Virus record (IMG/VR): IMGVR_UViG_3300037246_000975
Coordinates: 1-56,723 of that record
Direction: 5' to 3' (one strand)
Length of the DNA stretch: 56,723 nucleotides
DNA from: a virus
Lineage: Duplodnaviria; Caudoviricetes
Shown here: positions 3,373 to 55,861 of the stretch, one piece after another
Numbering within the stretch: the stretch's first letter is position 1
Layout of the letters: every line of letters begins with the position of its first letter
Made by a program: the position numbers and the translations under genes
Notes under the pieces: generated by a model
What the model was told of the DNA's origin: nothing
Databases searched by the model: none
Seen by the model: the letters and a program-made list of their open reading frames with translations, nothing else

Positions 3373-3403
3373 ATTCACTTTTCAAATAAACCCTGCGGAG
3401 GGC

Positions 3404-5002
3404 TTAAAGCATAGTGGCTTCTGTGAGACCCGTTAATTTGACAGCACGAGGATCTCTTGGTGCAATTAAATTGTAGTACCAGAAAGGAGCCTCCACTAAT
3501 TCCTGTGGGGCACCAGAGGCAGCACGGGCTATCATAAACACACCGGAAAGTCCACCAAGCGGAGCCAAAAATTCAAGTTCCGGCCCCATCTTGCCATCCA
3601 TTCCACCCAATCTCGGAGGACTAAATCTCTGGATGTTGTCCCCACCGAACTTCATGGCATACAGCGTATTACTCAGGCACATCGGACTCATAATCCACTC
3701 ATAGCTTCGTCCACCGAACTCATAAGCAATCTGAGACCAACCGCCCTTGAAGCTCAGGGCTTTCCCGGTACGCTCATAATTTTGCCTGTTGTTATACAGA
3801 CCCGGCTGTTGAAGCCATTTTAACTGAACGCCCTGCGTGGTGATAATGGTGTCTAAGGTTTCCCCCGGATAAGCATCCAAGTATCCGCCAATGTAACCAT
3901 TAATCACATCGTCGGTAAGAGGCCCATTCACGGCTTTAACCTGAGACTTGAACTGTGGATATAAGGTCAGGTCAAGAGCTTGGGCTTCAGAGGCTCCGCC
4001 CATAATAACACCAGATGCCTTAATCCAATCATTGAGTCCCCAACTAAACTGAGGGCGGTTACTGACACGACTCGTATGGGCTATCACAATCCAGTCATCC
4101 GCAGCAACAGGATTGCCAGTTTGAACCCAGTCTCCCGTTGCACCCTCGTCATAGGTCGCCTGAATACCAGTCACGGAGTTAATGGCTTTAACTGTGAATG
4201 CTTTCCCAAGATAATCAACACTGGTGATGATTACCTGACAATAGGATTGAGCATTCCACTCATAGTTACGCACATCCGACCCGTCATCATTAGTCCCGTC
4301 TTGTAATACACCTCCGACATCGGCGACAAGATCAAGTCTCATACCCTGACGGAAATTGGCGATTCGACCATACTGCTCGTCAATATCAATTTTGATGTAA
4401 TCTGTGGAACCAACTTCGGCTATGACCTTGACTCTTCCGAGAACCTGATTCGATGCACCCGAGGTTGCATCTGTCCCTGTTTGATTTACTACACTGTGGG
4501 AGAAAAAGCTGGAAGCCTCATATATAGCTTTCAGTTTCGCTACGGCCTTCATGTCCCGTGCCACTACCTTAATCTGGGCAGCATTTAACAACTCAGCCTG
4601 CATCCAAGAGGCGGGGAGACTAAAGTTCCCCACGACCTTATGAAGGACAAGTGTTCTCTTAATATCGCCCATGTGAGGCGATTCCGAACCCTTCGGGAAA
4701 ACCGCTAAACCAGCAATCGGAGATTCAATTCCATATCTCTGGTCTAACAGTTTAGTTTGTGTCCCGGTAATGCCATCCATTTCCGGGCCGAGTGGGTCAG
4801 CCGACTCAATCAAACCAGCCACACCAGTTTCATAAAGGTGAAGCACTTTATATCCACGACCAAGACCAGTCTGGCTTTTAACTCCCAACGCTGTTCGTTT
4901 AATCTTATCGAACACAGGAGCTATGGTGGGGCCTGCCTCCTGGATCATCATCGGCAGTTCTTCTCTCACCAAGTTATCGAGGGCTGCAATTGCTTGTGCC
5001 AT
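3404..5002 (-). CDS. Major capsid protein (putative)
   Basis: 532 aa; portal-scaffold-capsid synteny; GAGG RBS; terminator downstream; capsid-like C-terminus (YYNLIAPRDPRAVKLTGL). Confidence 0.75.
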   Translation of the reverse strand: MAQAIAALDNLVREELPMMIQEAGPTIAPVFDKIKRTALGVKSQTGLGRGYKVLHLYETGVAGLIESADPLGPEMDGITGTQTKLLDQRYGIESPIAGLAVFPKGSESPHMGDIKRTLVLHKVVGNFSLPASWMQAELLNAAQIKVVARDMKAVAKLKAIYEASSFFSHSVVNQTGTDATSGASNQVLGRVKVIAEVGSTDYIKIDIDEQYGRIANFRQGMRLDLVADVGGVLQDGTNDDGSDVRNYEWNAQSYCQVIITSVDYLGKAFTVKAINSVTGIQATYDEGATGDWVQTGNPVAADDWIVIAHTSRVSNRPQFSWGLNDWIKASGVIMGGASEAQALDLTLYPQFKSQVKAVNGPLTDDVINGYIGGYLDAYPGETLDTIITTQGVQLKWLQQPGLYNNRQNYERTGKALSFKGGWSQIAYEFGGRSYEWIMSPMCLSNTLYAMKFGGDNIQRFSPPRLGGMDGKMGPELEFLAPLGGLSGVFMIARAASGAPQELVEAPFWYYNLIAPRDPRAVKLTGLTEATML

Positions 5003-5069
5003 CGTATTATCCTCTAACTAAACACATTTACATTAATATGCAGTTAGTCAAGGATTTCAATCCGCGAAT

Positions 5070-5966
5070 CTACTTCATCTTCCGGGCTTCGTGAACCGCC
5101 CTTTGAAGATACCTTGCAACAAGATTCTCCTCATTAGCATCTTCATTTGAAGGAATTCGCTTGATTGGTTCGTCAGCTTGGATTACAGATGAAAGCCCTT
5201 CACTCGGGGTCAGGCCCAAAACGATGGGTTGCTGATTGAGTTTCTTTGGGATACCTAATTTAGTCAACTGTGACCGCACCATCTGTACGCTCGCAGTAAC
5301 CAAATCGGCCCCAAACGGTTTTCCGTTCTGAATCTTCGTCAGAACATCCTCAGCTACCATATTTCTTACTTCGGCGAGAACTTCTTCTTTGTCCTCACCT
5401 ACTATCATTTTACCAATTATCTCATCTTTGTCAACCGCTTTGTCCGATATTTCTCGAATTTCTTTTCTGGCATCATTAACATGCCGTTGCGTAGAAAACT
5501 CCAAAGTAGCTCTAACCTCCGCAGGAGTGGCCCCCATTACCTTCTCAAATTCGGCATTAAAGTCTGCGGAGGTGGCTTTAGTGGTCGCTTTAGGGTCAGG
5601 GTCGTCCTCTTTGAGATGCACCATAAACTCAGCGGGGTTAATCCCCCAAAGACCGGCTAATTCCTTAATATCCGCCTCAGACGGATTCTCGGCCTCATTT
5701 ATTGACTTTACAAGAACACCCGCCCGGGCATCCTTCTCAGCGGCTTTTGTGGCCTCAGCAGCCTCTTGGAATCTTTTGTCGGCCCCAGATGCTTTCGAGG
5801 CTCGCTCTTTGAGTTCATCAAGCGTTAATGCAACATCCACCCCATCTACCTTAATAGTGTGGGTTTCAGTTTTCTTTGGTTCCGGCTCGATTTTTGGTTC
5901 TGGTTCAGGTTTTGGCTCCGGTGTAGGAGTTGGAGTCGGTTCTGGTTTAGGTTCTGGCTCTGGCAT
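5070..5966 (-). CDS. Capsid scaffolding protein (putative)
   Basis: PEPK/PT low-complexity N-terminus; HTIKVDG...TLDEL...ADKRFQEAA motif typical of scaffolds; upstream of the capsid gene. Confidence 0.7.
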   Translation of the reverse strand: MPEPEPKPEPTPTPTPEPKPEPEPKIEPEPKKTETHTIKVDGVDVALTLDELKERASKASGADKRFQEAAEATKAAEKDARAGVLVKSINEAENPSEADIKELAGLWGINPAEFMVHLKEDDPDPKATTKATSADFNAEFEKVMGATPAEVRATLEFSTQRHVNDARKEIREISDKAVDKDEIIGKMIVGEDKEEVLAEVRNMVAEDVLTKIQNGKPFGADLVTASVQMVRSQLTKLGIPKKLNQQPIVLGLTPSEGLSSVIQADEPIKRIPSNEDANEENLVARYLQRAVHEARKMK

Positions 5967-5979
5967 TTTTTTCCTTTCG

Positions 5980-6264
5980 TTATTGTTTTACGGGTTGTAC
6001 ACGCATTTCATCGGGGGCTTCACAGTAGAATCCTTCTTTCCGTTCAGGTTTATTTTTCCACCTTAATTGAATCCATCCATAAGGGATATAGTGACTTATT
6101 TCTCCGGCTCCGACTCTGTGACCATTATCGGAAACAATAAGAAATTGAGGATTCTCAATACGAACAATTTCGTTGCTTGGGAAAACATATTCTCGCCATT
6201 CTTCCCAAGAGGACAAATCCAATTTCTTATAGTAAGGGAGTAAACTTTTTCTGGTCGGTTTCAT
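5980..6264 (-). CDS. Hypothetical protein
   Basis: 94-aa ORF with AAGGA RBS between portal and scaffold. Confidence 0.65.
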   Translation of the reverse strand: MKPTRKSLLPYYKKLDLSSWEEWREYVFPSNEIVRIENPQFLIVSDNGHRVGAGEISHYIPYGWIQLRWKNKPERKEGFYCEAPDEMRVQPVKQ

Positions 6265-6278: not shown

Positions 6279-8297
6279 TTATTGTTGTGATATTTCTCCC
6301 TGCGGAGGTTGAAGTTCAAGTTCTGCTGCATCTTCCATCAGAGGCATCTCTTCTGGTATTTTTCCCAATATGTTGTCGTGTTCTTCATCATGTGCCACAA
6401 AAGCATTTCTTACCGCTGGCGAGGCGGCATAAAATTCAGGGCGAGCCATAAAGGCATTAAGGACACTTTTATGAATTAAAGGCATGTCACGTTCACTCAC
6501 GATAACTTTCCCAGGTTTCTCCCCATCCCCAAATAAGGCTAAGTTCTCTAATTTGGCCCGGCGGTAGTTTTGCCAAGCCTGCTCGTTACCGACTGGGGAA
6601 GTTAGTCCTAATTCTCTTACTTTGAAAGAGTATTCGTCGAGAGTAAGCACCCCATCTTTGAGGGCTTCTTTTAACTCCAATTTCTGTTGCTCTTTTGATA
6701 TAGGGACTTCGGAGGCCACATTGATATTCACTTCGTCAGGAGATGGGATGGCATTTCTGGCGAGGTTAATTTCCCCAGTCTCCATATCAAACGCAATTCC
6801 GGCCAAAGAATCATCGAGATTACTAATACTGACGACTTTTTCTCCTGGCCACATATCCCGACAAATCCCTAACATAGCACGATAAATCCCAGATATTGCT
6901 TCGGCCACATTTTTAGCCGTTGGCGAAAGCGGAATACCACTTGTCTCGTACAGGAACCCTAAACCGGAGGCAGAATCCACACGACCAGGAGCACCACCTT
7001 TCAATATCTCCATTGGTTGATTTGCGATTTTATCCATCAAACCACCGGCAACCATAGCCGCCTCTATATTCGATTTTGACATTTTCGCAGGCATTATATT
7101 GAACGGTTTCTGTTCTGGGCAAGTATAATCTATCTCATATTCTATTCTTTTAATTCCGTCCTGTCCTCTATGAGCCTCTGGAGAAGTTCCAAGAGATGTT
7201 GGCCACATCTGTATGCCATATAAGTCAAAATCGGCTACGGACTGGAATAGACTACTGAGACTATACTCCGCCTCGGTATTCAATGGAATTAAGGTGTCGA
7301 TAAAAGAGCGGCCATAGAATCCACCTACGACAATATCCCGTGCAATTTTAACTGGCATGTGATACTTACTTTGGGAATGGTCGTGACGATATAACTGATT
7401 CAGTTTCTGATAAGAACCGGCAAAGATAAGATACTCCGCCAAATACCCATCTGATGTCTCAGTCCATACCTCGACGAGTAGTGTAACATCAGTTTGCGTC
7501 TTATCTTTTTTAGTGTGCCGCCCCGCCCATTGGGTCTCGACTTGGCTCTGCCCACTCCGGATATAAAAACCCCCGCCCGTATGCGTAAGAGAAGCAGTCC
7601 CCTGAAAATTAGAGGATATATCGGCAGGCAAGTCCCCAAAAGGAACTTTCACATCATCCATTCCTTTATAGACTTTTGATCCTTTACCCGGGGTTATAGA
7701 TAAACCTTTTATATAGTCTGTGGGGACATATCTCACCCGAATTAAACCCCTCACATCTGACGGGGTAGCCACATCTATTGGAATCGGAATCAGTTCCCAG
7801 GGATTTATAACTTCTATCCCAATGCTATCAACTCCCTCCACCCATAACCCAAATCCGATTGTTCCATAATGAAGAAGTGGGGGGAAAGCATTCAAAGCCA
7901 ATTTAGAAACTTTCTCTTGTGGAAATGCCGAATCAAGAACCACCTGAGCCGTACTTGCCTTCCTCAACCCATCAAGACTCACCCCACGCCTCGATACAGC
8001 CGGAGCCAGATTTATCGCCAACAATCTACCAAGCTGAGCTTGATATTTTGCAACAATATCTTCATATCGAAATTTTAGTACCCCAGACTGATCCAAATAC
8101 GACGCATTTAATGTGCCTGCCCCGTAATTAATATTACTGAAATTCCTTAACCCCCTCATATAGTAATGATTCATATACCAATTTATTGAGATGGGATTCA
8201 TTTTTGACTTGCCAGTGGAGACAAGATATTGAAATATGGATTCAACCTGATGTTTGTTATCTTTTGTATTTTCTGGTAGTTGGAACTTATATCCCAT
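6279..8297 (-). CDS. Portal protein (putative)
   Basis: 672 aa between terminase and scaffold; size and helical character fit a podovirus-type portal. Confidence 0.7.
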   Translation of the reverse strand: MGYKFQLPENTKDNKHQVESIFQYLVSTGKSKMNPISINWYMNHYYMRGLRNFSNINYGAGTLNASYLDQSGVLKFRYEDIVAKYQAQLGRLLAINLAPAVSRRGVSLDGLRKASTAQVVLDSAFPQEKVSKLALNAFPPLLHYGTIGFGLWVEGVDSIGIEVINPWELIPIPIDVATPSDVRGLIRVRYVPTDYIKGLSITPGKGSKVYKGMDDVKVPFGDLPADISSNFQGTASLTHTGGGFYIRSGQSQVETQWAGRHTKKDKTQTDVTLLVEVWTETSDGYLAEYLIFAGSYQKLNQLYRHDHSQSKYHMPVKIARDIVVGGFYGRSFIDTLIPLNTEAEYSLSSLFQSVADFDLYGIQMWPTSLGTSPEAHRGQDGIKRIEYEIDYTCPEQKPFNIMPAKMSKSNIEAAMVAGGLMDKIANQPMEILKGGAPGRVDSASGLGFLYETSGIPLSPTAKNVAEAISGIYRAMLGICRDMWPGEKVVSISNLDDSLAGIAFDMETGEINLARNAIPSPDEVNINVASEVPISKEQQKLELKEALKDGVLTLDEYSFKVRELGLTSPVGNEQAWQNYRRAKLENLALFGDGEKPGKVIVSERDMPLIHKSVLNAFMARPEFYAASPAVRNAFVAHDEEHDNILGKIPEEMPLMEDAAELELQPPQGEISQQ

Positions 8298-8299: not shown

Positions 8300-8590
8300 T
8301 TAATTCCCAAGTGACATAATATAATTTGTATTTTCAGGCTCCTTCTTGTCTTTCTTTCCATCAGCTATCCCCCTAAGTTTACCCTGCGGAGGTTTATTTA
8401 GGGCAACTAAAGCCCTTAATGCAGACTCTGGCTTCTCATCCTTCCCAGCTACTACAATCAAGAGTTGCTTATTGGTTTCCGTAATCTGATAAACGGCCTT
8501 GCTTAGTAATCTCATAAGGAGGCAGATAAGAGCCAAAAATAACCCGATCACACCAAGCATCCCGAACCCAAGATAAGTTTCCATAGACAC
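8300..8590 (-). CDS. Small membrane protein (one N-terminal TM helix)
   Basis: Hydrophobic YLGFGMLGVIGLFLALICLLM; GGGAG RBS. Confidence 0.6.
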   Translation of the reverse strand: MSMETYLGFGMLGVIGLFLALICLLMRLLSKAVYQITETNKQLLIVVAGKDEKPESALRALVALNKPPQGKLRGIADGKKDKKEPENTNYIMSLGN

Positions 8591-8931: not shown

Positions 8932-10779
8932 TCATCCTACGATATTCCTTTGGCCTCGGATAATACGCCGGTTGTTTTTGTCTATGGCCGACTTACGGGC
9001 ATTTTTACTCAATATATCGAGCATCTCGTCCGTTACCTCCGCAGAAGATACTCCCGAAAGTAGGGGTGTCCCTTTTATAAGAGGTATATTCCTGCGGATG
9101 CGTTCAAGCAAACTGGGTTTGCCTTTTTCCCGGATGAATTTCCCACCACGATTCTTGACAACATATTGGTACATCGAGAGTGTATCAATAGCATCGTCGT
9201 GAGGCAGTAGAGCTAAGTCCGGTGTAAAATCCTCTGTCTGTTGATACAACTGGTCAAATGGCCACTTCCCAGCGAGATGAGCCGGATACTTTATTCTCCC
9301 GGGGCGATACCGCCACTCTATCCCGCAGATTCGATTGCTCTTGGACACACGAGCCGGATATGTAATTGGAAAAACTCTCGCTCTCCAAGGCTGTGATATT
9401 TTCTCCTCCATCTCTTCAATGTATTCCTTGACAGCCTCCGCAAAACTCATCTGAATACTCACGGCCTCTATCCCAAGTACCCTTGGTCTCCAAGCCAACC
9501 CCTTCTCATAAATCAATCTCAGAAGAGTTGCGTCCTTAGCCCGACCCAACCACATATCCAAAATCCACAAGGTGTTCGTAGTATCGAACCCAAGAATGAG
9601 AATACAAGAGTAATCATTATATTGAGACATTCCACTGCCGTAATCGAACAAAAGAATTCGATACATCGGCAATACGAGTTCTTTATAAGGCTTTTCATAG
9701 TCTTTATAAACCCTGTGACCCGGCTCCATAAACCGCTCTGACCATTTTATCAGGCCCGTATGAGTTAGTGGATTGTTCCAATCAAATTCTCCTTCAACGC
9801 TATATTCATTCTTGCGAGGGTCAATTACTAAAATACGGTCTTGTTCTGAGATGGGTTCATTGCAATATTCTGAGGCAAAGGCCGATGGGCCGATTTCTTC
9901 CCGCCGAGCTTCAAGAACAGCCTGAGACCATTTCTCCGGCCACAAAACATAGACTTTTTTAGGGTCATCTTTGTCATATTCTATTGCTTTCAGAATCTTA
10001 CGATTCCAGAAATCAAACCGAGGGTCGTCACTCCCCACAGCGTGATACAAGAAAGACCGCCTATTGATTAATGTCCCCGCCCAAAAAATAGAGGAACCAG
10101 ATTCGAGCATAGGAATAATTTGCCGAAACATAATCATCTCAAACTTCTCAATGACAGCTTGAGCAGCAGCTTGAGAATCAGAATCAGGGTCATTTTCAGG
10201 GTCGTCAAGTATAAATAATCTCGGCCTACCTCCCCGCTTCTTCCCCATCACGCTAAGACCTTTTATCACGGCCCCATTCATTAAACTTAATTGATGATGG
10301 TTCCAAATCTTCCGACCTCTCGGAGGCTTCATTTCTCCGAAGTCTTGAAGTATTAATTCATTTTCAGTGAATTGCTGTATCAACCTATCAAATCGTTCTT
10401 CAACAAGTCTATCTATCGCCTGTCCAATAGTCATCTCATAATGGGGGCGGGTCAGTCCTAATAGAAGGGGAATCTCCAATCCCATCACAAAACTCTTGCC
10501 ACTCCCTCTTGGGGCAGCAATAGCATTCCGACCGTGTTGGCCTAGATCAAAAACCATTTCATAGTGGAAATCTGCGGATTCCTCGAAGCCGTTTTTGTAA
10601 AATAACTTCCCCGCCCCCGCAAGATAGCATCTGCGGAAGAAATCCCAAGCCACTACCAAATCAAAAGGAGTCGATTGATTATGCAGAACGGCCAACCTCG
10701 CCTGCTTCTGAGCATCAGTCGATAACGAACCATAATCCCTCGGCAGTGGCCATATCGGAAATGGTCTTTTAATCCACAC
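8932..10779 (-). CDS. terL: Terminase large subunit
   Basis: Walker A AAPRGSGKS, Walker B FILDDPE, FASEY.NEP linker, RNase H-like nuclease residues (LLFDYG, DYS, HDDAIDTLS). Confidence 0.92.
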   Translation of the reverse strand: MWIKRPFPIWPLPRDYGSLSTDAQKQARLAVLHNQSTPFDLVVAWDFFRRCYLAGAGKLFYKNGFEESADFHYEMVFDLGQHGRNAIAAPRGSGKSFVMGLEIPLLLGLTRPHYEMTIGQAIDRLVEERFDRLIQQFTENELILQDFGEMKPPRGRKIWNHHQLSLMNGAVIKGLSVMGKKRGGRPRLFILDDPENDPDSDSQAAAQAVIEKFEMIMFRQIIPMLESGSSIFWAGTLINRRSFLYHAVGSDDPRFDFWNRKILKAIEYDKDDPKKVYVLWPEKWSQAVLEARREEIGPSAFASEYCNEPISEQDRILVIDPRKNEYSVEGEFDWNNPLTHTGLIKWSERFMEPGHRVYKDYEKPYKELVLPMYRILLFDYGSGMSQYNDYSCILILGFDTTNTLWILDMWLGRAKDATLLRLIYEKGLAWRPRVLGIEAVSIQMSFAEAVKEYIEEMEEKISQPWRARVFPITYPARVSKSNRICGIEWRYRPGRIKYPAHLAGKWPFDQLYQQTEDFTPDLALLPHDDAIDTLSMYQYVVKNRGGKFIREKGKPSLLERIRRNIPLIKGTPLLSGVSSAEVTDEMLDILSKNARKSAIDKNNRRIIRGQRNIVG

Positions 10780-10934: not shown

Positions 10935-11772
10935 TGTCCAACTCCTTGAGAGCAGGTAAGGTACGGATGACATCGAAGAATGCGATGGTTGTAGCGATAC
11001 CGGCTGTCCACGCCGAATTGCCAGCATTGCTACCCATCACAATTTTCAGACTGGGCCAGATGCCTTCAATATAGCCGGGTTGATTCAGGAGAGCCAAAAC
11101 CATATCGGGAATCATAGCCCTGTCTTGAAAGTCCCACATTGTAGTTGAAGGAGTCATCAATGGCTCAGCACACAAAGACACTATATGAAAAGCGACAGTG
11201 TTCAAAACAAACCCATCTTCCAGAATATACTTTTTTAAGTTTGTGAATTCAATATCCTCCGCAGGTTTAGCTCCGGCAATGCCTGTATCGTATGTGTGCT
11301 TTACTTTGAAATCAGATGGTAGTTTCTCTATACCGGGAATAGGTGTTGCAACAGGGTAAAACTCTTTTTCATTTTTAGGGAAAGATTCTGCCGTATAGTC
11401 TGTTTTATCAGTCTTCTGCGGAGGAGATTCCGGGGAAGAGGTCTTGGTCACAGGTTGGAGGTCTGGTTTTGATGCAGGGATTTTCGGAATTTTGTGGGTG
11501 GGCATCGTCGTTTGGGGTTCCTCCGGGTACTGGTCTTGGAGTCTCTCCTCCGTCTGGCGGTTCAGTTCCTCCAGAGTCAGCATCTCCTGGGGGGAAGGCT
11601 CGTCGGGTATCAAGGATGGGTTCATCGGAATTAGAATTGTTCCTTTTTGTACTTCTTTCTTCACAACCTTGGCCACCTTTTGAAGTTCCTCGCTGGTTAA
11701 TTTCGCAGGAGGAGTCGCTCGGTCGCCTATCGCTTTCTCGATTGGGTTCGGTTCGGGTTTCTTTTTTGTCAT
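10918..11772 (-). CDS. Hypothetical protein with Pro/Lys/Glu-rich N-terminal half
   Basis: 284 aa; AAGGA RBS; 5' third overlaps the upstream gene. Confidence 0.65.
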   Translation of the reverse strand: MTKKKPEPNPIEKAIGDRATPPAKLTSEELQKVAKVVKKEVQKGTILIPMNPSLIPDEPSPQEMLTLEELNRQTEERLQDQYPEEPQTTMPTHKIPKIPASKPDLQPVTKTSSPESPPQKTDKTDYTAESFPKNEKEFYPVATPIPGIEKLPSDFKVKHTYDTGIAGAKPAEDIEFTNLKKYILEDGFVLNTVAFHIVSLCAEPLMTPSTTMWDFQDRAMIPDMVLALLNQPGYIEGIWPSLKIVMGSNAGNSAWTAGIATTIAFFDVIRTLPALKELDNAKKS

Positions 11773-13234: not shown

Positions 13235-13692
13235 GACTTTTTTAATCCTGCTATAGCTACTTGATATGTGGTTGTTTTTGGAGGCCACTCCAATTCAATA
13301 TCGGCATTGTCCTCCATTAAGTCGGTGACATTGACTCCCATTGCCTCTGGGCAAGTTGTTATATGATGATGAGGAAGCATTTTTTTGGCTCTCGTAATCT
13401 CGGCCTTGAGGTTTTTCCTGGCCGTACCTTGCCAGTATAGACAACAGTATAGTTGCCGGTCAGTCCAGTCAGAATGCTTTTTCCTCATCTTCTTGACGTG
13501 AGTAGCCAAATCAAATTCCGTATAAATTAAATAAAAGTCTTGGTCAAATATGTCAAAAAATAATTTCTGTTGAGGAGGACAACCTTTCTTTTTACCGTAG
13601 TTGGGACATCCTTTGGTGTGGCCCGGATAGGATTGACGACATAGTTTTTGAAACATAGGATCAATATTTATGGTATGAATATTATATATCAT
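13231..13692 (-). CDS. DUF2284-like predicted metal-binding protein
   Basis: C...GCPNYGKK.GCPP and PEAMGVNV motifs. Confidence 0.7.
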   Translation of the reverse strand: MIYNIHTINIDPMFQKLCRQSYPGHTKGCPNYGKKKGCPPQQKLFFDIFDQDFYLIYTEFDLATHVKKMRKKHSDWTDRQLYCCLYWQGTARKNLKAEITRAKKMLPHHHITTCPEAMGVNVTDLMEDNADIELEWPPKTTTYQVAIAGLKKS

Positions 13693-15508: not shown

Positions 15509-15696
15509 AATCTGTTTATTTTTTTCTTTTTAGGATGACCCCACAAAGCAAACAGCAACCATCTTTGTCGATAGGTCTCTTACCTTGACAATAGTGACAA
15601 TCAACTATTTCACCAGTTGAGATGGGGGGCTTATATTTTTTACTTTTCATTTTAATTCCTGTCAAACCAATATTTTAACACCTTCTGCGGAGGAAG

Positions 15697-17563: not shown

Positions 17564-17596
17564 TTACCTGACCGCATTCTTTCCTTCATACTATTC

Positions 17597-17624: not shown

Positions 17625-17632
17625 GGGGAATG

Positions 17633-44444: not shown

Positions 44445-44903
44445 CTAAAATCCTCCTTTCATTAGTCCGACCATCCCGGCCCCAGAAGCCTGCGTAGCTG
44501 CTCCCATTGGCCGACGACTCAACGCCTGCATAGCCTGAAGCACTAAAGCCATCTGTCTATTCTGACTTTCCGTGAAGGATTGTAAGGCCGCAAACTCCCG
44601 TGCTTCTTTTTTCTCTTCTTTTTTTACCTTTAACAAAGTCTTCATATATTCCTTTGTCCGAGCACGAGACTCCTTAACACTTCTTTCGGTAGCCTCCGCA
44701 GAAGCCTTACCCATCAATGTCTGCAATCTCATTTGTTCCCGGGTCAATCCACGTTCCCCAGCTTGACCATAAGCTCCAACTGCTGTACTACCTAAATAAC
44801 CTGCTCCAAGTAATGCAGTAATAAAATGCTTAGAACCATAAAGAGCTTTGAAAGCCGCTGGAATTTTCGGAGCTATTCCAGCTATCATTGGGCCTATAGG
44901 CAT
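44445..44903 (-). CDS. Putative internal virion/pilot protein
   Basis: Ala/Gly hydrophobic N-terminus and coiled coil. Confidence 0.55.
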   Translation of the reverse strand: MPIGPMIAGIAPKIPAAFKALYGSKHFITALLGAGYLGSTAVGAYGQAGERGLTREQMRLQTLMGKASAEATERSVKESRARTKEYMKTLLKVKKEEKKEAREFAALQSFTESQNRQMALVLQAMQALSRRPMGAATQASGAGMVGLMKGGF

Positions 44904-46240
44904 TATTCAACTCCTTCTAATTCAGGGTATCTTGAACTCAAATAATTATTAAACCAAGTCCTGTACTCAATATCATATTTATTCATATCGGCTGTGATGT
45001 CATATAGTTTAGGAACCTGTACCGATTTTGTCATCTCTTCAAAAACAGCTTCAAAATTCCCACCAACTAAATCTCTCATACGAGCAGCCCGTCCACCCAA
45101 AGAACTATCGTGAACGGTTCCTAAAGCATATTGTACCCGTGCTCCAACTGTCTCTGTCTCCGAACCAGTTATTTTTTTCTTGCTATTAGCAAGCCCTTCT
45201 AAACTATCCCGCATCTGAGAGATACTTAGGTAAGTATCTTGCCAGAAATCAAACTCCGAAGAATCTTTTGTGGCAGCAGTTCTTCGTTCCAAAATGGCAT
45301 CTAACATACCCTCTACCGCCCCAAGGGTTTTATTAATATCCTCGGTTTTTATATCTCCCCGCTGCATTTGATCCTCTATTTTGTTGATATTCTCTGGGGC
45401 CATTTCTTCAACCGAGATGATTCCTCCATGTCGGGTAATCTGGTCTTGAAGAACCCCCATCGGGTCGGCTATTCCCTCTTTTACTTTTTCTTTCAAACCC
45501 CTATAGCGTTGTATCTCTGCGTATGCTCCTAAAACCGGGCCTTTTATTAGCATACCTTTGGCTACATCCCATTTAGATGGGATTTGCTCTTTTATGCTTT
45601 CTGGAATTGGCAAATCCATCCGCTTATCATTAGCAATAGCTTCCATTACCCGTTCTCTTGTTTTAAGATAAACATCCTTGTCTTTATCAAATCGGTCAGC
45701 CTCCTCCTCTAATATTGTTTTAGCTTTCTCCATCGAGGTTTCACGTTTGAGACTTCCTTTGATGATAGAAAGCATAGCATTTGTATTACGTTCCGCAGCA
45801 TCCATCCCCAATTCAATATTAAACCTGCGGAGGGCTTCTCGTCTTTTCTCAATTTCGTCTTTGGCTTTTCTGTCTCCCGAAATAATAGCTCTCTGTTGGT
45901 CTCGGGCAAGTTCAGCCTGCTTCGCCTGAAAATCCCGAGATGCTTCTGACATCGTTTGGGCAAACTTTCTATCTTCCCGTTTTGCTCGCTCATCCTCCGC
46001 AGCACGTTTGTCGTCCGAAGCCAGTTGAGCGGCCTGCGTACCCCGCTGTGTTTCAGCCTGCATCGTTGCTCGTTCAGTCGCTCCCCGTTCAGTCATAGCT
46101 GTCCTCCCCGCCGCTCCAGCCTCTTGCATAGCAGCAACAAGCCTACTTCCAGCCTGCTGTTTACCTCGTTGCAAAGAAGTCTGAACATAAGGACTTAGTT
46201 CACCACCGACTTGTGTAGGAGCATCTTTTGCTCTTGGCAT
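44903..46240 (-). CDS. Putative internal virion protein (coiled coil)
   Basis: 445 aa, Q/E/R/A-rich. Confidence 0.55.
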   Translation of the reverse strand: MPRAKDAPTQVGGELSPYVQTSLQRGKQQAGSRLVAAMQEAGAAGRTAMTERGATERATMQAETQRGTQAAQLASDDKRAAEDERAKREDRKFAQTMSEASRDFQAKQAELARDQQRAIISGDRKAKDEIEKRREALRRFNIELGMDAAERNTNAMLSIIKGSLKRETSMEKAKTILEEEADRFDKDKDVYLKTRERVMEAIANDKRMDLPIPESIKEQIPSKWDVAKGMLIKGPVLGAYAEIQRYRGLKEKVKEGIADPMGVLQDQITRHGGIISVEEMAPENINKIEDQMQRGDIKTEDINKTLGAVEGMLDAILERRTAATKDSSEFDFWQDTYLSISQMRDSLEGLANSKKKITGSETETVGARVQYALGTVHDSSLGGRAARMRDLVGGNFEAVFEEMTKSVQVPKLYDITADMNKYDIEYRTWFNNYLSSRYPELEGVE

Positions 46241-47392: not shown

Positions 47393-50028
47393 GATGCACT
47401 CACCTTGCGAGAATCAGTATAGGATACCGCAAATTCAGCGTCCGTTAGTTCAAACTTCACGCCAGATGCTATCTGTTCAATATAAGGCTCTAAATCAATT
47501 CCCTCTACATTCAAGCCCTCCGCAGAATCAGCGGGGTTGGAGTCAACAGATGGATAGGCTACAGTGGATTCAATCGAGGTTCCACCGTTCCTATAAGCTC
47601 CTACACGCCATTTATCATTCGAGTTGTTGTCAAATCCTGATAATTTCCGAGCTTTCAAAGCTATCCCCGATGTAATCCACCTATTGAATCTGGATAGTTC
47701 TTCGTGCTGCAATGCCCAAGCTCTTAAAGAAAACGGCACTGGACTAACTGCATAGGTGTCGCCGGTAGCTATATCATTATCAAAGTTAGATGTAAATGTA
47801 AATACCTTTGTCGAATTATCTATCGTTGCTATCTCCCGCGAATCTCCGGCATTATCGCCAGTCACCATATATAACCTCGACCCCTCCATATCTGCGTTCA
47901 AGGTGGCATTAGCATCTGTGAGGGTTGTAGCGGATGTGGCGGTTGCAGTACCATTGAGGGTATAGGTATCGCTTAAATCCCACATCGTACCACTACCAGA
48001 CTCTAAGTTGTCTGGGCTAACGATGAGGCCGGTTGCTGTAACGAAGAAAGCCCGGTCGTTCTTTCCAGAAGAAATGTCCGGCCCAGAAGTAGCGGCTACA
48101 AAATTAGCCCCATCAAGCATCGTACACACTTGAGTGGAGTGCCATAGTATCACCATTTCTCTCCGAGTTGAGTTCAGGAAAAAAGATGCGTTCATTAGAG
48201 CGTCGTAGCAACTCTTAACTGTTGACAAATCGGATTTCCAATCATCAAACATAACTCGGTCGGCTGCCGTTATACTCGCCATGCTTCCATCTGCGGCGTT
48301 AAGAATAGACAGTCCAAGACCTGTAATCATAAATATACTATTGCCGGAGGAGTGGGCTACTTCTTTCCCTACAATTCCTCTTTTCTTGTGTAATCGGGAG
48401 AATTGTAACGGCTTGAGTTTGCCCGACTTGAAGATATGAACTATTGCATTATAACCGAGTTGAAATAAGGAATCCGATGCAGCGATAAATCTCAAAGGTC
48501 TCCCATCTTTAGGGTCTCCTATTCGTCTGTTATAGGTGCTGAAATACTCCGGGGAAACATGCTCGGGGCTACTTGATAAGGTATCATATCCACCGTCTAC
48601 ACTCGCAGCTTGGGCCATAAAGGTTACATTGCTATATCGTCCGATTGTCCCACTCTGTGGAGGTGCTGCGACAATATCTTTTTCAGGATCATACATAGTC
48701 TGAAACGGTAAAGCCTCATCAACAAGCGTACCAATATCTACCGTTAAAGTATCCCACGCTCCTGATGATGCCCAATTTCCCGTTTTAGCGATTGTTTGCT
48801 CAAGATAGAATATAGCTCCTTGTGTAACAGTTGTATTACCTAAGTCGATTGTGCGGAATATATCGACCGTATCAAACAAATCTCCAAAACCATCCCCACT
48901 ATCTGTATAAACAAATCCAGCACCGCTGTCGGGGAAGTCTATAGTAATTTTTACTTGTGTTTCAGCCTCCGCAGTAACAACGCCGCCTCCTGATAAGGTG
49001 CTTCCAGAAACAGAAATATCGTCAGTATATTGCCCAGTTTCCACTACACTAAGGTCATAAGCATTCCCAGCCGTGCCTCGTACCTTGGCCTCCAACAATA
49101 CACTTGAGGCTTGTGCCGAAGCAGTGACGGTTGCTGAACTATCCCCATTGATTGCATCAGCTAAAGCTGTCGCGTGAGATGCAACGGTAGCTGCCGCAGC
49201 AGCCGCAATCGTGACATCTGACCCGGAATCAATATATTCATAAGACCGACTATTGATTGTGAAAACATCCCCCGCGACCATTAAACCACCACCACTTCCT
49301 GCGGAGGAAAAACTTATTGTCCCTACGGCCTTGGTGGTTTTGAAGTGGTCTAAATGCACTACGAGCGGGGCACTAAGAGCACTATATATTCCTCTTTTTG
49401 AATCATAAAAACGGAAAGCGACTTGGTAAGTCCCATTCCCCCGCAACTGATAACTTGTGTCCACTGCGGAGGTATTTAGTGTTGGAGCAGTGAGTTCAGA
49501 CCCAAAATCGCCAGACCCAGAATCCACAGCCACTAAATTTGACCCGTCATAGTACACGGTTTGTGTAGCCTTGCCATCTACGGCGACAAGTAAATAGGCC
49601 CCCGAAACGGCACAATCTATTTCAAGACTTGAAGTGATACTATTTCCAGTCCCCCAAATAGCAAGTCGTAGCCAATTACTTCCATTATCCAGAGTATAAA
49701 CTAAATCAATCTGTTCATCGGATGTCCCATTTCCACTATCCCATCTAATGACAAATCCCCGATAGACGGTGGACGTACCCCGCTTTTGAAAAGTGACGTA
49801 ACGTACAAAATCCGGGCCAGAATTGGCATCTATGGCTCCCATCCCCGTCACATCATCTAAATCAAGAACCTCTTTCATCCCGTAGAATTTCCGAAGCCCC
49901 CCGAAAAATCTACCGTCTATTCCCGACAGTCTCCCAAACGACCCCGGCCTCACTTGGTTTGGAGGCACAGATTGATCCATCCGAGGTGTTCGGAAAGGAT
50001 AGGGAATATAAATTCTGTCTTCAGGCAT
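47389..50028 (-). CDS. Tail nozzle / tail tubular protein (putative)
   Basis: 879 aa, beta-rich; between the fibres and the ejection proteins. Confidence 0.55.
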   Translation of the reverse strand: MPEDRIYIPYPFRTPRMDQSVPPNQVRPGSFGRLSGIDGRFFGGLRKFYGMKEVLDLDDVTGMGAIDANSGPDFVRYVTFQKRGTSTVYRGFVIRWDSGNGTSDEQIDLVYTLDNGSNWLRLAIWGTGNSITSSLEIDCAVSGAYLLVAVDGKATQTVYYDGSNLVAVDSGSGDFGSELTAPTLNTSAVDTSYQLRGNGTYQVAFRFYDSKRGIYSALSAPLVVHLDHFKTTKAVGTISFSSAGSGGGLMVAGDVFTINSRSYEYIDSGSDVTIAAAAAATVASHATALADAINGDSSATVTASAQASSVLLEAKVRGTAGNAYDLSVVETGQYTDDISVSGSTLSGGGVVTAEAETQVKITIDFPDSGAGFVYTDSGDGFGDLFDTVDIFRTIDLGNTTVTQGAIFYLEQTIAKTGNWASSGAWDTLTVDIGTLVDEALPFQTMYDPEKDIVAAPPQSGTIGRYSNVTFMAQAASVDGGYDTLSSSPEHVSPEYFSTYNRRIGDPKDGRPLRFIAASDSLFQLGYNAIVHIFKSGKLKPLQFSRLHKKRGIVGKEVAHSSGNSIFMITGLGLSILNAADGSMASITAADRVMFDDWKSDLSTVKSCYDALMNASFFLNSTRREMVILWHSTQVCTMLDGANFVAATSGPDISSGKNDRAFFVTATGLIVSPDNLESGSGTMWDLSDTYTLNGTATATSATTLTDANATLNADMEGSRLYMVTGDNAGDSREIATIDNSTKVFTFTSNFDNDIATGDTYAVSPVPFSLRAWALQHEELSRFNRWITSGIALKARKLSGFDNNSNDKWRVGAYRNGGTSIESTVAYPSVDSNPADSAEGLNVEGIDLEPYIEQIASGVKFELTDAEFAVSYTDSRKVSAS

Positions 50029-51252: not shown

Positions 51253-53057
51253 TCTGAACCATCACTTTGAATAGTGATTGATTCATATTGTACTGTTAAA
51301 ACAGCCGTTAAACCATCATCTATTGTTTCACTTGAATTTCCATCTACCGTGACAGTATTAGCAGAGGAATCTATTTTTTTTATGTAATATATCCTACCTG
51401 TATGAGAAGCCGCCGCAGGTAATGTTATTGTAAATGCACCCCCCGAAGCATTACATAAAATAGTATAGTCAGTAGCGGTAGCAGTGTAACCACTTGTTTT
51501 AGTTCTCAGATTACCAATAAAACCTTTTGTTTCTACTGTACCCGTAAATGTCCCACCAACCCAAGTGGGACTATCCCCTGTTCCCAATCCTAAAGTAGTC
51601 GCCTGTGCCGCTGCATTTGCATCATCTAATATAGCTCGCCCTGCGGAGGTTAGAGCAGATTCGGCCCAAGTAGCTTCAGAATAAAGTGTAGTCTCTACTC
51701 CTGTATATAATCTTCCACCATCATTTCCCACTATCAAATTACTTCCATCCGCATCAGAAGCTACCCCATGCCAATCTTTATCTGCATCCCCAGCTGGTTG
51801 TTGTTCAGTCCAAGTTACTCCATAATCATCGGATGTATATAACCTTAAACTATTCCCGGCTACTAAATGACTTCCATCAGAGTCAGATGCCACTCGTCTC
51901 CATTCTTTATCTACGTCTCCGGCTGGTTGTCTCTCTGTCCAGTTAACTCCGTAGTTTGCTGATGTATATAGCCTTAAACTATTTCCCGCTATCAAATGAG
52001 ACCCATCATCGTCAGAAGCTACACTATACCAATCCTTATTAGCGGCCCCGGCTGGTTGTCTCTCTGTCCAGTTAACTCCGTAGTTAGCCGATGTATATAA
52101 CCTCCCCCCATCATTTCCAACTATTAAATGAGAACCATCAGCATCAGAAGCTACCCCCTCCCAATTTTCATCAAAGTCTCCAGCAGGTTGTCGCTCTGTC
52201 CAGTTAGCCCCAGAATTGGCAGATGTCCATAGTCTCCCAATAAATTCCCCTGCTATCAAATGACTTCCATCTGAATCAGATGCTACTCCCCACCAATTCT
52301 TATTTGCGTCTCCAGCAGGTTGTCGCTCTGTCCAGTTAGCCCCAGAATTGGCAGATGTCCATAGTCTCCCAATAGTTGCATTTCCAGCTATTAAATTACT
52401 CCCGTCATCATCGGAAGCCACCCCAGACCAATTCATATTGGTATCCCCCCCCGGTCGTCTCTCTGTCCAATTAGCTCCTGAGTCAGCCGATGTCCATAGC
52501 CTACCTGGTCTTGCCCCGGCTATTAAATGTGAGCCGTCTGCATCAGAAGCTAATCCATACCAATCTTCATTTGCATCTCCTTTGGGTTGTCTTTCTACCC
52601 AAACAATTTCGGTATATGTATTATAAGCATTGGTATAAATCAGTCTGTTGGCGGCTGTACCAAGGTCATTTATTAAATCAAGATTGTGAGGGAGTGCTGC
52701 CAAGAAATTAGAGTTCTGAGGCAGATTCAAACCCATGACAGTAATTATCCCCGGTAATCCTTGTGGCCCCGGAAGTCCTTGTAGACCTCTTGGCCCCTCT
52801 GCTCCAAAGGAAATTCCACCCCCCTCCGCAGGGATTAAACTACTGGCTAAATCTTTTAATTGAGTTTCTCGGTCGGGGATTATTCCGTAGTCCCCATACC
52901 GTCTCGCAGTGCTTCCGCCACCCCAGGGAGTAACTATTCCGAAGCCGTCTACGAATTGCGGATTATCAATCCCGGGGAGGAACAATCCTTGAAGTCGAGG
53001 GGATGGCCCTGCTGTAATGTCGCTGCTTTCTCCGGAAGAGGTAAATACTTCACTCAC
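51237..53057 (-). CDS. Tail fibre / receptor-binding protein with collagen-like stretch and 7-blade Asp-box (BNR) propeller
   Basis: GPRGLQGLPGPQGLPG; seven roughly 44-aa repeats (WTERQPAG...VASD.DGS.LI.G...RL.TS...G.N); C-terminal TITLPAA...G..Y.IKK.D domain. Confidence 0.75.
   Translation of the reverse strand: MSEVFTSSGESSDITAGPSPRLQGLFLPGIDNPQFVDGFGIVTPWGGGSTARRYGDYGIIPDRETQLKDLASSLIPAEGGGISFGAEGPRGLQGLPGPQGLPGIITVMGLNLPQNSNFLAALPHNLDLINDLGTAANRLIYTNAYNTYTEIVWVERQPKGDANEDWYGLASDADGSHLIAGARPGRLWTSADSGANWTERRPGGDTNMNWSGVASDDDGSNLIAGNATIGRLWTSANSGANWTERQPAGDANKNWWGVASDSDGSHLIAGEFIGRLWTSANSGANWTERQPAGDFDENWEGVASDADGSHLIVGNDGGRLYTSANYGVNWTERQPAGAANKDWYSVASDDDGSHLIAGNSLRLYTSANYGVNWTERQPAGDVDKEWRRVASDSDGSHLVAGNSLRLYTSDDYGVTWTEQQPAGDADKDWHGVASDADGSNLIVGNDGGRLYTGVETTLYSEATWAESALTSAGRAILDDANAAAQATTLGLGTGDSPTWVGGTFTGTVETKGFIGNLRTKTSGYTATATDYTILCNASGGAFTITLPAAASHTGRIYYIKKIDSSANTVTVDGNSSETIDDGLTAVLTVQYESITIQSDGSEWWIL
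51700..52602 (-). repeat. Seven tandem coding repeats of about 129-135 bp
   Basis: Includes a 67-nt identical pair at 52176-52242 and 52308-52374. Confidence 0.9.
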
Positions 53058-54685: not shown

Positions 54686-55115
54686 CACTGTGTTCTTTCA
54701 AATACGAGATCGCATTTACAAGTAAAGAAATTTCATCTGAAAAGAATCCAATACCTGTATTACAATTTCGACACAAAAGCCCTCTAATTTTTCCGGTCTT
54801 GTGGTTGTGGTCAACAGCCAATCGTTGGCCTGTTTTACATTTCTTACCACAAATAGCACATAACCCATTTTGTAAGGAAAAAATATGATTGTATTCTGCT
54901 AAAGTTAAATTAAAACAATACTTGATTCTGGCTTTCCTAGCAGCGTGTAATCCTTTCTTACTGTGTCCATATTTTTGTTGAGACCTGATTTTCGGTTTTT
55001 GACACTGGGAACACACACCAACTCTTTTTTTTGGATTATACTTATTCTGTCTGAAATTAATAATCGGCAATAGCCGTTTGCAATGATAACACTTTTTCAA
55101 ATCGTGGTCATTCAT
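54678..55115 (-). CDS. Endonuclease VII-like homing endonuclease
   Basis: QNGLCAICG, LAVDHNHKTGKIRGLLCRNCN.GIG, A..YL motifs; N-terminal CxxC...CxxC. Confidence 0.9.
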   Translation of the reverse strand: MNDHDLKKCYHCKRLLPIINFRQNKYNPKKRVGVCSQCQKPKIRSQQKYGHSKKGLHAARKARIKYCFNLTLAEYNHIFSLQNGLCAICGKKCKTGQRLAVDHNHKTGKIRGLLCRNCNTGIGFFSDEISLLVNAISYLKEHSDA

Positions 55116-55237
55116 TTATGAACTCCTTTTATCGTCCCGGCTTTTTCGGAAGCGAAGAACACACTTTTGCCTTTTTTCTCTCCATATTTTTTAATCATTG
55201 CCGCAATAATTTCAGTCCCTTTTTTAGTTTTGGGCAT
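55112..55237 (-). CDS. Small basic phage protein (41 aa)
   Basis: Hand-translated MPKTKKGTEIIAAMIKKYGEKKGKSVFFASEKAGTIKGVHK; AGGAG RBS. Confidence 0.7.
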   Translation of the reverse strand: MPKTKKGTEIIAAMIKKYGEKKGKSVFFASEKAGTIKGVHK

Positions 55238-55238
55238 T

Positions 55239-55628
55239 TTATTCTCCTATTGCGATCCGTTCCTGTCGCTCTGTCTCCTCCGAATCTTCATCCTGAAGGT
55301 TATGGTAGAAATCACTATCTCCTGCTATAATAGCTTTACTGGTAGCCTCCGCAGTAACCGGGTTGAAAAGCCTCCTGCGTAACTCACAGGCTTCTGTATG
55401 TCCAAAACTACCCAGCGATTTTCCAAGATTCAGTACGTCCACAAAGGTATCCTGACCCCCACCTACCCACTCACAAATACAATAGACTTCAAGTTTATCG
55501 TAGCGGAGAAGGAAAAGGCAACCCTTCCGTTGAGGGCTATCTTCCACAAGTCGCTCTAACCATTCGGCCATTTCCCCGCCGATGATAGTGTGTTCGTCGG
55601 GGTTATAGCAGGACACTAATCCTAACAT
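55239..55628 (-). CDS. Hypothetical protein
   Basis: 129 aa; start overlaps the upstream stop. Confidence 0.65.
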   Translation of the reverse strand: MLGLVSCYNPDEHTIIGGEMAEWLERLVEDSPQRKGCLFLLRYDKLEVYCICEWVGGGQDTFVDVLNLGKSLGSFGHTEACELRRRLFNPVTAEATSKAIIAGDSDFYHNLQDEDSEETERQERIAIGE

Positions 55629-55861
55629 TATTTCTTCTCCGGTTGTTTCAGGGGAATAATCTTAGGCCCTTTCTTTGAACCTTGGCCTTCAGATTCTTCT
55701 ACGGGAGGTTTTATCTGCGGAGGTATAATTGCTTTTATGTTCCCCAGAATAAAAGACACATCGTTGAAGGCATTGAGACCTGATTGTTTCAGGGCTGCAT
55801 CACATACATTACTAATCAGGCGTTGACCTTCTGCATTTACCTGAATGATTACTGGATTCAT
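55628..55861 (-). CDS. Hypothetical protein
   Basis: 77 aa; GAAAGGA RBS. Confidence 0.6.
   Translation of the reverse strand: MNPVIIQVNAEGQRLISNVCDAALKQSGLNAFNDVSFILGNIKAIIPPQIKPPVEESEGQGSKKGPKIIPLKQPEKK

Follow-up and report, generated by a model that had tools for sequence, protein, structure and literature searches.

A selected nine-base word in inward-facing pairs across a phage family, and its possible role as a Chi-like polar signal

Iterated DNA signals such as Chi, the uptake sequences and KOPS (FtsK orienting polar sequences) are central to the distinction between self and foreign DNA and to the steering of enzymes that track along DNA, and almost all of those known are cellular. 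Phages rich in Chi have also been described: the E. coli phage LLS carries 23 Chi sites (one per 1.86 kb) and P1, likewise a phage of E. coli, carries 50 (one per 1.9 kb), Chi being the commonest octamer in both, and in the main text of the study concerned the authors infer positive selection on phage Chi, with sites that ‘come and go’ (PMC12315714). Here, we analyse a nine-base word, CCTCCGCAG, that recurs throughout the IMG/VR virus record IMGVR_UViG_3300037246_000975, a phage genome of 56,723 bases (hereafter the window, meaning the whole of that stretch of DNA). Like Chi in LLS, P1 and the Pseudomonas phage MD8, it is a short asymmetric word, the commonest of its length, that lies in coding sequence, is under selection and turns over, and the likeness to Chi-rich phages extends to density (about one site per 1.6–1.9 kb) and to the use of different words in different host or phage groups (PMC12315714).

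Partial parallels are also found elsewhere. The uptake signal sequences (USS) and DNA uptake sequences (DUS) share with CCTCCGCAG a length of 9–12 nt, a density of about one per 1–2 kb, occurrence in all frames and on both strands and a greater abundance in core DNA, and they too exist as clade-specific dialects. Stoperators are 13–14 bp long, lie mostly between genes and point one way relative to transcription. Those of the Cluster A mycobacteriophages resemble the present sites in being many, dispersed and asymmetric, and are read by a phage protein that evolves with the lineage (PMC9283540, PMC6550527). The cyanobacterial HIP1 (highly iterated palindrome 1) word, GCGATCGC, is likewise a highly iterated short word under selection in coding sequence, but is palindromic, cellular and linked to a methyltransferase (PMC4390886), whereas CCTCCGCAG is non-palindromic, polar, phage-borne and independent of the phage methyltransferase. 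A selected, iterated short DNA word is therefore a known kind of thing. A whole-word search of the literature on both strands, however, found CCTCCGCAG as a motif in no paper, its only occurrence being in an unrelated chicken-virus study, and within the literature searched the signal is undescribed, as was originally proposed. Nor did we find, in the literature on phage Chi (compared through the main text cited above), uptake sequences and stoperators, a precedent for the combination reported below: a virulent-looking family with five clade dialects and convergent pairs with even same-orientation spacing.

The window contains 36 exact copies of CCTCCGCAG, 16 on the plus strand and 20 as the complement (Table 1), or one per 1.6 kb. 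All 36 stand where the original prediction had placed them, and the six variants matching at eight of nine positions that it named (201, 2440, 13793, 14633, 35799 and 56194) are present too. Dinucleotide-preserving shuffles of the window held a mean of 0.27 copies and a maximum of one. The prediction was to be given up if the enrichment vanished under a shuffle preserving both amino acids and codons; it persists, since 500 such shuffles of the 82 called open reading frames (ORFs) gave a mean of 0.92 copies and a maximum of 4, against 32 observed in those ORFs. Sites with one mismatch number 30, bringing the total with at most one mismatch to 66, where 7.0 are expected, and within ORFs the one-mismatch forms are roughly twofold enriched (28 against 13.1 under the codon-preserving shuffle).

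The word occupies all three frames in both senses and, in the mRNA sense, reads as AE (13 sites), SA (8), PPQ (5), LRR/LRS (4), LRR (1) and CGG (1). Thirty-one of the 36 sites lie wholly within an ORF, matching a coding fraction of 90%, and their relative positions within genes, in both senses, are spread from 0.04 to 0.99 without preference. Selection thus acts on the DNA and not on the proteins, as the variety of readings had suggested from the outset. The flanks are unconserved apart from an A-rich stretch at −2/−1 and a purine-rich, C-poor one at +1/+2 and, across 548 aligned sites, information is confined to about −2 to +3, which identifies the element as a short word rather than a piece of something longer. 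We accordingly rejected a longer repeat or mobile element (of the miniature inverted-repeat or repetitive extragenic palindrome kind), there being no conserved sequence beyond about ±3 nt.

Site density is highest (0.85 per kb) in genes that 8 or more of 13 relatives have, lower (0.52 per kb) among genes of patchy distribution and zero in the 6.5 kb of genes unique to the window. This explains the only long motif-free stretch (6.8 kb, at 15700–22490), which is occupied by small ORFs with no homologue in any of the 13 relatives. A local reversal of GC skew, at 16–20 kb, lies inside it.

Searches for relatives that began with the polymerase and went on to profiles of both polymerase and sheath yielded 18 further records. 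The original proposal to look amongst related phages for the same or a different dominant 9-mer proved fruitful on both counts: 13 of the 18 share CCTCCGCAG, at about one copy per 1–2 kb, and the other five use other words. Close relatives with about 74% nucleotide identity (G001–G004) carry 35, 35, 36 and 40 copies, and those with polymerases 49–63% identical (G010–G015, G018 and G019) carry 6 to 57, again at about one per 1–2 kb; two further loci have 12 copies in 13.3 kb (L241) and 9 in 13.5 kb (L242). Reversed-word controls in the relatives give 0–3 copies, and the G+C content of the records carrying CCTCCGCAG ranges from 38.5 to 56%.

The five deeper relatives, whose sheath proteins are 54–65% identical, have no or almost no CCTCCGCAG and a different dominant word instead, in 29–48 copies: CCCCTGCAA in G425 (29 copies), GCCCCGCAG in G426 (29), CCCCTGCAG in both G427 and G428 (29 each) and CCTCAGCAG in G429 (48). 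In all five, the dominant word is usually followed by A. The five dialect words share the form CCYCNGCAR and are mutually exclusive, with off-diagonal counts of 0–5 in a matrix of 14 genomes by 5 words. In a midpoint-rooted tree of six proteins, the CCTCCGCAG genomes form a single clade with G015 at its base, a second clade comprises the CCCCTGCA[G/A] genomes, and G426 pairs with G429 as its sister; the dialects follow the phage tree. In G015 (loci L226–L228), 30 sites show G at −1 in 90%, G at −2 in 76% and G at +1 in 80%, making a 12-mer, GGCCTCCGCAGG. This extended word is found in G015 alone, and is thus a lineage-specific extension. Two virus fragments of 6–7 kb (G016 and G017) and the contig L085 are short and have 4–6 copies of the word each; L085 and G016 match only the Big_1-domain protein encoded at 53060–54523, and weakly, whilst G017 has no match to it. 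All three may be tail-fibre regions of further family members.

Individual sites are conserved over short distances and replaced over long ones. In three close genomes, 19 of 26, 18 of 25 and 19 of 27 alignable orthologous sites are identical, compared with 9–12% for all 9-mers in the same alignments. When sites were mapped onto eight relatives via protein alignments, identity held at 17 of 24 (G002), 17 of 24 (G003), 14 of 24 (G004) and 13 of 24 (G019) in the closer genomes and fell to 6 of 23 (G012), 4 of 21 (G013), 4 of 19 (G018) and 0 of 16 (G015) in the distant ones, yet the copy number in these eight genomes stays at 23–57, and at 23–43 in the four distant ones. A given site is thus shielded for a time but eventually gives way to others, and it is the density that endures. 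The alignment of orthologues suggested at the outset as a check on turnover thus reveals both sides of it, with about 70% of sites kept in close relatives against a background of about 10%, and turnover in distant ones.

The word had been described as not strand-polarised. This holds for whole-genome totals, which are balanced, but not locally, where three kinds of order are seen. First, orientation alternates between neighbouring sites more often than the permutation mean in nine of nine CCTCCGCAG genomes (P 0.0006–0.11; 31 of 39, 25 of 34 and 21 of 29 neighbours are examples). Second, sites of the same orientation are spaced more evenly than chance in these nine, with a normalised standard deviation of 0.49–0.80 where the random-placement null lies near 0.92, although spacing that ignores orientation is indistinguishable from random in eight of the nine. 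Third, adjacent sites that face each other, 5′-CCTCCGCAG...CTGCGGAGG-3′ (head-to-head), are about three times closer than those in the opposite arrangement (tail-to-tail): across 14 genomes, the median gap is 481 bp (n = 166) for the former and 1487 bp (n = 166) for the latter (Mann–Whitney 8e-17; 0 of 3000 label permutations as extreme). The pair geometry and the local polarity are new observations of the present analysis.

The rule recurs in subsets of the data. The 11 clade-A records give medians of 481 bp head-to-head and 1331 bp tail-to-tail, and their pairs closer than 100 bp comprise 17 head-to-head and 0 tail-to-tail. A less-related subset gives 443 and 1413 bp, and three genomes sharing almost no sites with the window give 544 and 1700 bp (label-permutation P = 0.007). 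When the words of the five other-dialect genomes are oriented homologously, the medians are 487 and 2104 bp (0 of 3000 permutations); one of these, G425, is almost perfectly paired, with head-to-head gaps of 100–1339 bp and tail-to-tail gaps of 2024–5890 bp. Overall, orientation is highly structured in 13 of 14 genomes. A hairpin or terminator was rejected as an explanation, because in close pairs neither a stem nor any complementarity extends past the 9 bp and conservation stops at about ±3 nt, and an island composition artefact was rejected because the head-to-head islands show no difference in G+C. With no stem extension, ordinary island composition and no preferred position in genes, the pair rule is not explained by a hairpin, a longer repeat or a coding artefact.

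An orientation rule that extends over hundreds of base pairs, together with even same-orientation spacing, argues for an enzyme moving on DNA rather than a static binder or an uptake receptor. Our preferred reading, held tentatively and with less than even confidence, is that CCTCCGCAG, followed by a purine, is a Chi-like polar signal for the recombination or replication machinery of the family, its reader being either a phage or a host enzyme. The word would be recognised by an enzyme tracking along the DNA (a resecting nuclease or helicase-nuclease, perhaps the replisome), and only on approach from one side, whereupon the enzyme would alter its activity. Inward-facing pairs, 5′-CCTCCGCAG...CTGCGGAGG-3′ with tens to about 600 bp between the two words, appear to be the functional unit and recur every few kilobases. 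Known Chi words are G-rich on the strand read. Were the G-rich complement, YTGCNGRGG, read from its 3′ side as Chi is, degradation arriving from either direction would stop at the outer edges of a pair and spare the island between, with two overlapping 3′ tails that could anneal. We infer the tracking enzyme, the strand read and the annealing role of the islands; opposite polarity, programmed breaks inside the islands or paired initiation sites are possible alternatives to the island step.

Such islands would suit a circularly permuted genome that is rejoined or copied by the enzymes this family encodes. The only DNA-metabolism proteins present in all 13 relatives compared are the PD-(D/E)XK exonuclease, the ERCC4-type nuclease, the family A polymerase (PolA) fused to a uracil-DNA glycosylase (UDG)-like domain and the large terminase TerL, with the Sak4-like annealing protein in 12 of 13; the ERCC4-type nuclease is the best conserved non-structural protein. 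An exonuclease, annealase, flap nuclease and polymerase set is the toolkit of single-strand annealing and recombination-dependent replication, in which XPF-family nucleases trim flaps, and lambda exonuclease is known to pause at a specific sequence. The assemblies self-close with overlaps of 114–127 bp, as expected for a circular or permuted map. It is the family-wide toolkit, the self-closing assemblies and the likeness to Chi that lead us to favour a word controlling resection or replication. As its reader, we favour the phage exonuclease or polymerase core over a host helicase-nuclease, and the PD-(D/E)XK exonuclease is the candidate polar reader.

A more specific form of this proposal is possible, if doubtful. 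A conserved phage enzyme (the Cas4/RecB-like exonuclease, or PolA-UDG/ERCC4) would read the paired polar word of 9–10 nt as a mark of self, a ‘viral Chi’; pairs would delimit protected or initiating islands from which the permuted genome is rebuilt and copied, whilst host or competitor DNA that has no such word would be degraded. Word and reader would co-evolve, and the dialects might act as an incompatibility barrier. The original suggestion of a self-identification site, or a polar recognition site more generally, is viable.

A number of points weigh against the preferred reading. No helicase-nuclease conserved in the family was found amongst the 13 relatives compared, and the search for a reader named no protein. 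The clade-A genomes share ancestry, so that the per-genome tests are not independent. One genome, G428, is an exception to the geometry: its sites do not alternate (14 of 28), its same-orientation spacing is not even and its gaps of the two kinds (7 head-to-head, 7 tail-to-tail) are of similar length. The argument for annealing islands turns on the strand that is read and, since a case can be made for the other strand as well, the geometry is no proof of the model; Chi is read directionally, whereas directional reading here is deduced from site geometry. Chi is also shorter (8 nt, against 9–10 nt for the present word). According to the main text on Chi-rich phages, most of these have no recombination module of their own, and Chi in the cos phages is one-sided (LLS 20 against 3, MD8 32 against 0) (PMC12315714), whereas this family has its own module (Sak4-like protein, PD-(D/E)XK exonuclease and ERCC4-type nuclease) and its sites form balanced inward-facing pairs. 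In the first 50,000 of the 94,800 bases of P1, we find 27 Chi sites that do not alternate (13 of 26) and are not biased towards close head-to-head pairs (medians about 360 and 320 bp), and the pair geometry is therefore without counterpart in the one permuted Chi-rich phage checked.

The search for a reader went beyond the conserved core. As candidates to co-vary with the word, the original prediction had put forward the methyltransferase (Table 1) and ORFs 12762–13184, 27095–27652 and 34825–35115, but each of these is missing from several motif-rich genomes or dialect groups. With the queries used, the three ORFs are each absent from several genomes and do not occur in every dialect group, and neither they nor 10918–11772 and 40926–44069 have a family match in Pfam, PHROGs, PDB or Atlas. 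The methyltransferase has no tblastn match in G003, G012, G013, G015 and G018 and only a match of 17% coverage in G019; copies of the word number 23–57 in these six genomes and 23–43 in the five with no match at all. Being missing from many motif-rich relatives, it was rejected as the reader and as a part of the system. Presence and absence singled out no gene, because everything co-varies with the tree.

A different origin for the same kind of signal is the host. The word could be the host's own Chi (a RecBCD/AddAB hotspot), accumulated by phages that thereby survive or exploit the host nuclease, with the dialects marking host groups. The density of one per 1.6 kb compares well with those of LLS and P1 (1.86 and 1.9 kb per site, respectively), in those phages as in the window no k-mer is commoner than the word, and E. 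coli and Pseudomonas phages, which use different Chi words, provide a precedent for dialects (PMC12315714). The G-rich complement fits as well, as does the gradient of density from core through patchy to unique genes if accumulation is slow, and the 114–127-bp self-overlaps fit a permuted genome needing both orientations. We nevertheless consider a host Chi unlikely. The same 9-mer is kept by phages of 38–56% G+C, which suggests varied hosts, and we know of no Chi as long as nine to ten bases. The family belongs, by virtue of its recombination module, to a class that according to the same main text usually lacks Chi (PMC12315714), and the first half of P1 does not share the pair geometry.

The Chi of the cited phages is moreover the host's word, and no host with the present word was found amongst the genomes sampled. 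None of 802 bacterial genomes (401 + 401), nor of five further ones, approaches the phage density, a negative that is weak because the host is not identified and the sample makes up about 0.4% of the about 200,000 species in the collection. In 401 genomes from the phylum of G020, the highest density is one copy per 23 kb (83 in 1.9 Mb), and the genome with most copies, 168 in 6.3 Mb, also contains 122 of the reversed-word control. In 401 genomes from the class of G023, which include the unpublished G468 and G737 with one copy each, the 11-mer AACCTCCGCAG occurs at most 7 times per genome; the window has 9. A scan of bacterial contigs for the inverted-pair pattern returned at least 120 scattered loci, with no enriched genome among the matches listed, and the Atlas search gave no host clue. 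The few loci with 3–4 copies were followed up. The 4.2-kb contig L085, assigned to a Sedimentisphaerales bin, carries 4 copies, yet its genome shows no enrichment (28 copies, control 16) and has no sheath homologue, making the bin a weak host hint at best. Two Nostocales genomes (G005 and G006; loci L064 and L089) have 55–57 copies of CCTCCGCAG against 5–6 of the reversed control, or one per 130–170 kb. Many of these form head-to-head pairs 25–27 bp apart, and they look like a small hairpin repeat of these cyanobacteria, at far below phage density.

Equally improbable, in our view, is a site for a sequence-specific phage DNA-binding protein that organises, silences, packages or starts replication of the genome, in the manner of stoperators or the C1 operators of P1, with pairs that are bridged or that flank a zone of cutting or initiation. 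An asymmetric site of 9–12 bp would fit a monomer, and stoperators are bound genome-wide by a monomeric repressor (PMC9283540). Dialects that track the tree and the G015 extension would both fit a co-evolving phage protein. In addition, the head-to-head pair at 11256 and 11416 lies inside the gene just upstream of TerL, which is often where pac sites are located. Searches by tblastn and in Pfam, PHROGs and Atlas, from which distant homologues could escape, found no small DNA-binding protein conserved across the dialect groups, however, and the TerS-like protein encoded beside the terminase is poorly conserved even where the word is identical (21–35% identity, partial coverage or no match). Stoperators belong to temperate phages with a known repressor; here, sites lie mostly in genes, both orientations are paired and equally frequent despite genes that run in a single direction, and our searches found neither a repressor nor an integrase. 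Looping over 100–600 bp would by itself leave unexplained both the 17-to-0 rule and the even same-orientation spacing.

Type III and Type ISP restriction enzymes need inward-facing pairs of sites to cut, and an asymmetric site in head-to-head pairs would suit a target of restriction-modification, of a BREX (bacteriophage exclusion)-like system or of base modification. The window encodes a Type-III-Mod-like N6/N4 methyltransferase, and nucleotide-pool enzymes hint at modified DNA. We regard this as very unlikely all the same, since targets of nucleases are normally avoided rather than enriched 35-fold or more and conserved, since the word is abundant in relatives with no match to the methyltransferase, and since no translocating nuclease gene is conserved across the 13 relatives compared.

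Less probable still is an uptake-sequence-like tag, one of the options first put forward, or a host-wide repeat carried passively through the mutational or transformation drive of the host. The resemblance to USS/DUS in length, density, use of all reading frames and dialects has been described, the gradient from core to accessory genes resembles USS behaviour, and temperate phages of the Pasteurellaceae accumulate host USS (PMC6776037). Uptake is orientation-independent, however, whereas orientation and pairing are important for the present word. Its dialects follow the branching of the phages, and none of the bacteria sampled is enriched. The carriers also look virulent (none of 5 family genomes searched yielded a tyrosine integrase), and in the same study large, likely lytic phages are USS-poor (PMC6776037). 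A signal at the RNA level, in which an upstream CCUCC arm would pair with and mask a GGAGG arm, finds some encouragement in genes that lie on one strand, which places both forms in the same long transcripts, and in the favoured order of CCUCC upstream and GGAGG downstream, but can be all but dismissed, as a helix of 9 bp is weak when it closes a loop of as much as 600 nt, complementarity in close pairs ends with the word itself and neither the selection for either arm nor the even same-orientation spacing would be explained.

Whereas the cited phages rich in Chi carry a word that belongs to their host, in the present case an entire phage family keeps such a word by selection. If the reader is a phage enzyme, the system would represent a new class of viral self-recognition or recombination control and a natural source of DNA-processing enzymes that respond to both sequence and direction and already come in several specificities. 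If it is a host enzyme, the dialects would allow the Chi sites and hosts of uncultured sediment bacteria to be approached from sequence alone. The existence of five dialects makes the question testable, as words can be exchanged, cognate for non-cognate, between related phages or proteins.

Table 1. Copies of the word and principal genes in the window. For motif copies, + denotes CCTCCGCAG on the plus strand and - its complement on the plus strand; pair distances are start to start and all pairs are head-to-head.
Feature	Position	Strand	Remarks
Motif copy	3393..3401	-	Intergenic
Motif copy	5516..5524	+	Left arm of 48-bp pair
Motif copy	5564..5572	-	Right arm of 48-bp pair with 5516
Motif copy	6300..6308	-	
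Motif copy	8384..8392	-	
Motif copy	9036..9044	+	In TerL gene
Motif copy	11256..11264	+	Left arm of 160-bp pair; kept in G002, G003, G004, G019
Motif copy	11416..11424	-	Right arm of 160-bp pair with 11256
Motif copy	15199..15207	+	Left arm of 486-bp pair
Motif copy	15685..15693	-	Intergenic; right arm of 486-bp pair with 15199
Motif copy	22491..22499	-	Intergenic; after 6.8-kb motif-free stretch
Motif copy	23972..23980	+	Left arm of tightest pair, 23 bp; pair retained in G001/G004
Motif copy	23995..24003	-	Right arm of 23-bp pair with 23972
Motif copy	24199..24207	+	Intergenic
Motif copy	26894..26902	-	
Motif copy	28008..28016	-	
Motif copy	29251..29259	+	In Sak4-like gene
Motif copy	31269..31277	+	
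Motif copy	33040..33048	-	In PD-(D/E)XK exonuclease gene; same place in G002, G004, G012, G013, G019
Motif copy	35062..35070	+	Left arm of 186-bp pair
Motif copy	35248..35256	-	Right arm of 186-bp pair with 35062
Motif copy	38490..38498	-	In PolA gene
Motif copy	41897..41905	-	
Motif copy	42383..42391	+	
Motif copy	43666..43674	-	
Motif copy	44693..44701	+	
Motif copy	45825..45833	-	
Motif copy	45994..46002	+	
Motif copy	47517..47525	+	In sheath-like gene; same place in G002, G003, G004, G012, G013, G019
Motif copy	48966..48974	+	Left arm of 333-bp pair
Motif copy	49299..49307	-	Right arm of 333-bp pair with 48966
Motif copy	49464..49472	-	Same place in G002, G003, G004, G012, G013, G019
Motif copy	51641..51649	-	
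Motif copy	52823..52831	+	
Motif copy	55346..55354	+	Left arm of 369-bp pair
Motif copy	55715..55723	-	Right arm of 369-bp pair with 55346
Large terminase TerL	8932-10779		
N6/N4 DNA methyltransferase, Type-III-Mod-like	13689..15272	-	
Sak4-like (AAA_24) single-strand annealing protein	28484..29455	-	12/13 relatives; no match in 79%-complete G018
PD-(D/E)XK (Cas4/RecB-like) exonuclease	32748..33779	-	13/13 complete or near-complete relatives compared
ERCC4-type nuclease	35577..36158	-	13/13 relatives, 44-90% identity
Family A DNA polymerase (PolA) fused to N-terminal UDG-like domain	36847..39477	-	13/13 relatives
Sheath-like protein	47389-50028		
Virion protein	50041-51252		

The window is a whole virus record with a completeness rating of 100% and a G+C content of 43.5%. 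Nearly all of its ORFs lie on the minus strand and Shine–Dalgarno-like sequences precede ORF starts; no tRNA genes were found in it. The family is one of uncultured, tailed and probably virulent phages of roughly 50–60 kb. No close cultured phage was found by megablast, and tblastn with TerL and PolA gave matches at 20–30% identity only. One DNA sequencing run, labelled marine sediment metagenome, contains 94% of the sampled window words and may be the source sample, whilst no RNA sequencing run containing window sequence was seen among the matches listed.

Beyond the genes in Table 1, the window encodes an SMC/Rad50-like ATPase, an AAA_25 ATPase, a SLOG-domain protein and an HNH endonuclease. 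An HNH_3/NUMOD4 homing-endonuclease-like gene (39453–40001) lies directly downstream of the polymerase gene and is patchily distributed, with full-length matches in G002, G003, G013 and G018 and none in G004, G012 and G015. An altered nucleotide pool or a non-canonical base is hinted at by a deoxynucleoside monophosphate phosphatase (phrog_318), a dATP/dGTP diphosphohydrolase N-domain (PF18909) and the polymerase–UDG-like fusion (25581–26162, 26424–27098 and 36847–39477), the UDG-like domain of the last having invariant cysteines. A Z-genome was considered in view of the diphosphohydrolase domain and rejected, since none of the 5 family genomes searched yielded PurZ/adenylosuccinate synthetase.

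Two further repeats are present. Tandem repeats of about 130 bp, at 51700–52600, lie in the gene for a BNR/Sortilin-repeat protein (51237–53057), probably a tail fibre; the marker AACTGGACAGAG occurs there in 4 copies at steps of 129–132 bp, and by BLAST the number of repeats varies between relatives. A second repeated word, GTCCGATAA, is found in 10 copies in one orientation (that of the gene strand) at 18974–19346, 22216–22253 and 24187–24195. These copies are clustered, between small ORFs, in three stretches of the variable early region, and look like operator or iteron sites unrelated to the main motif.

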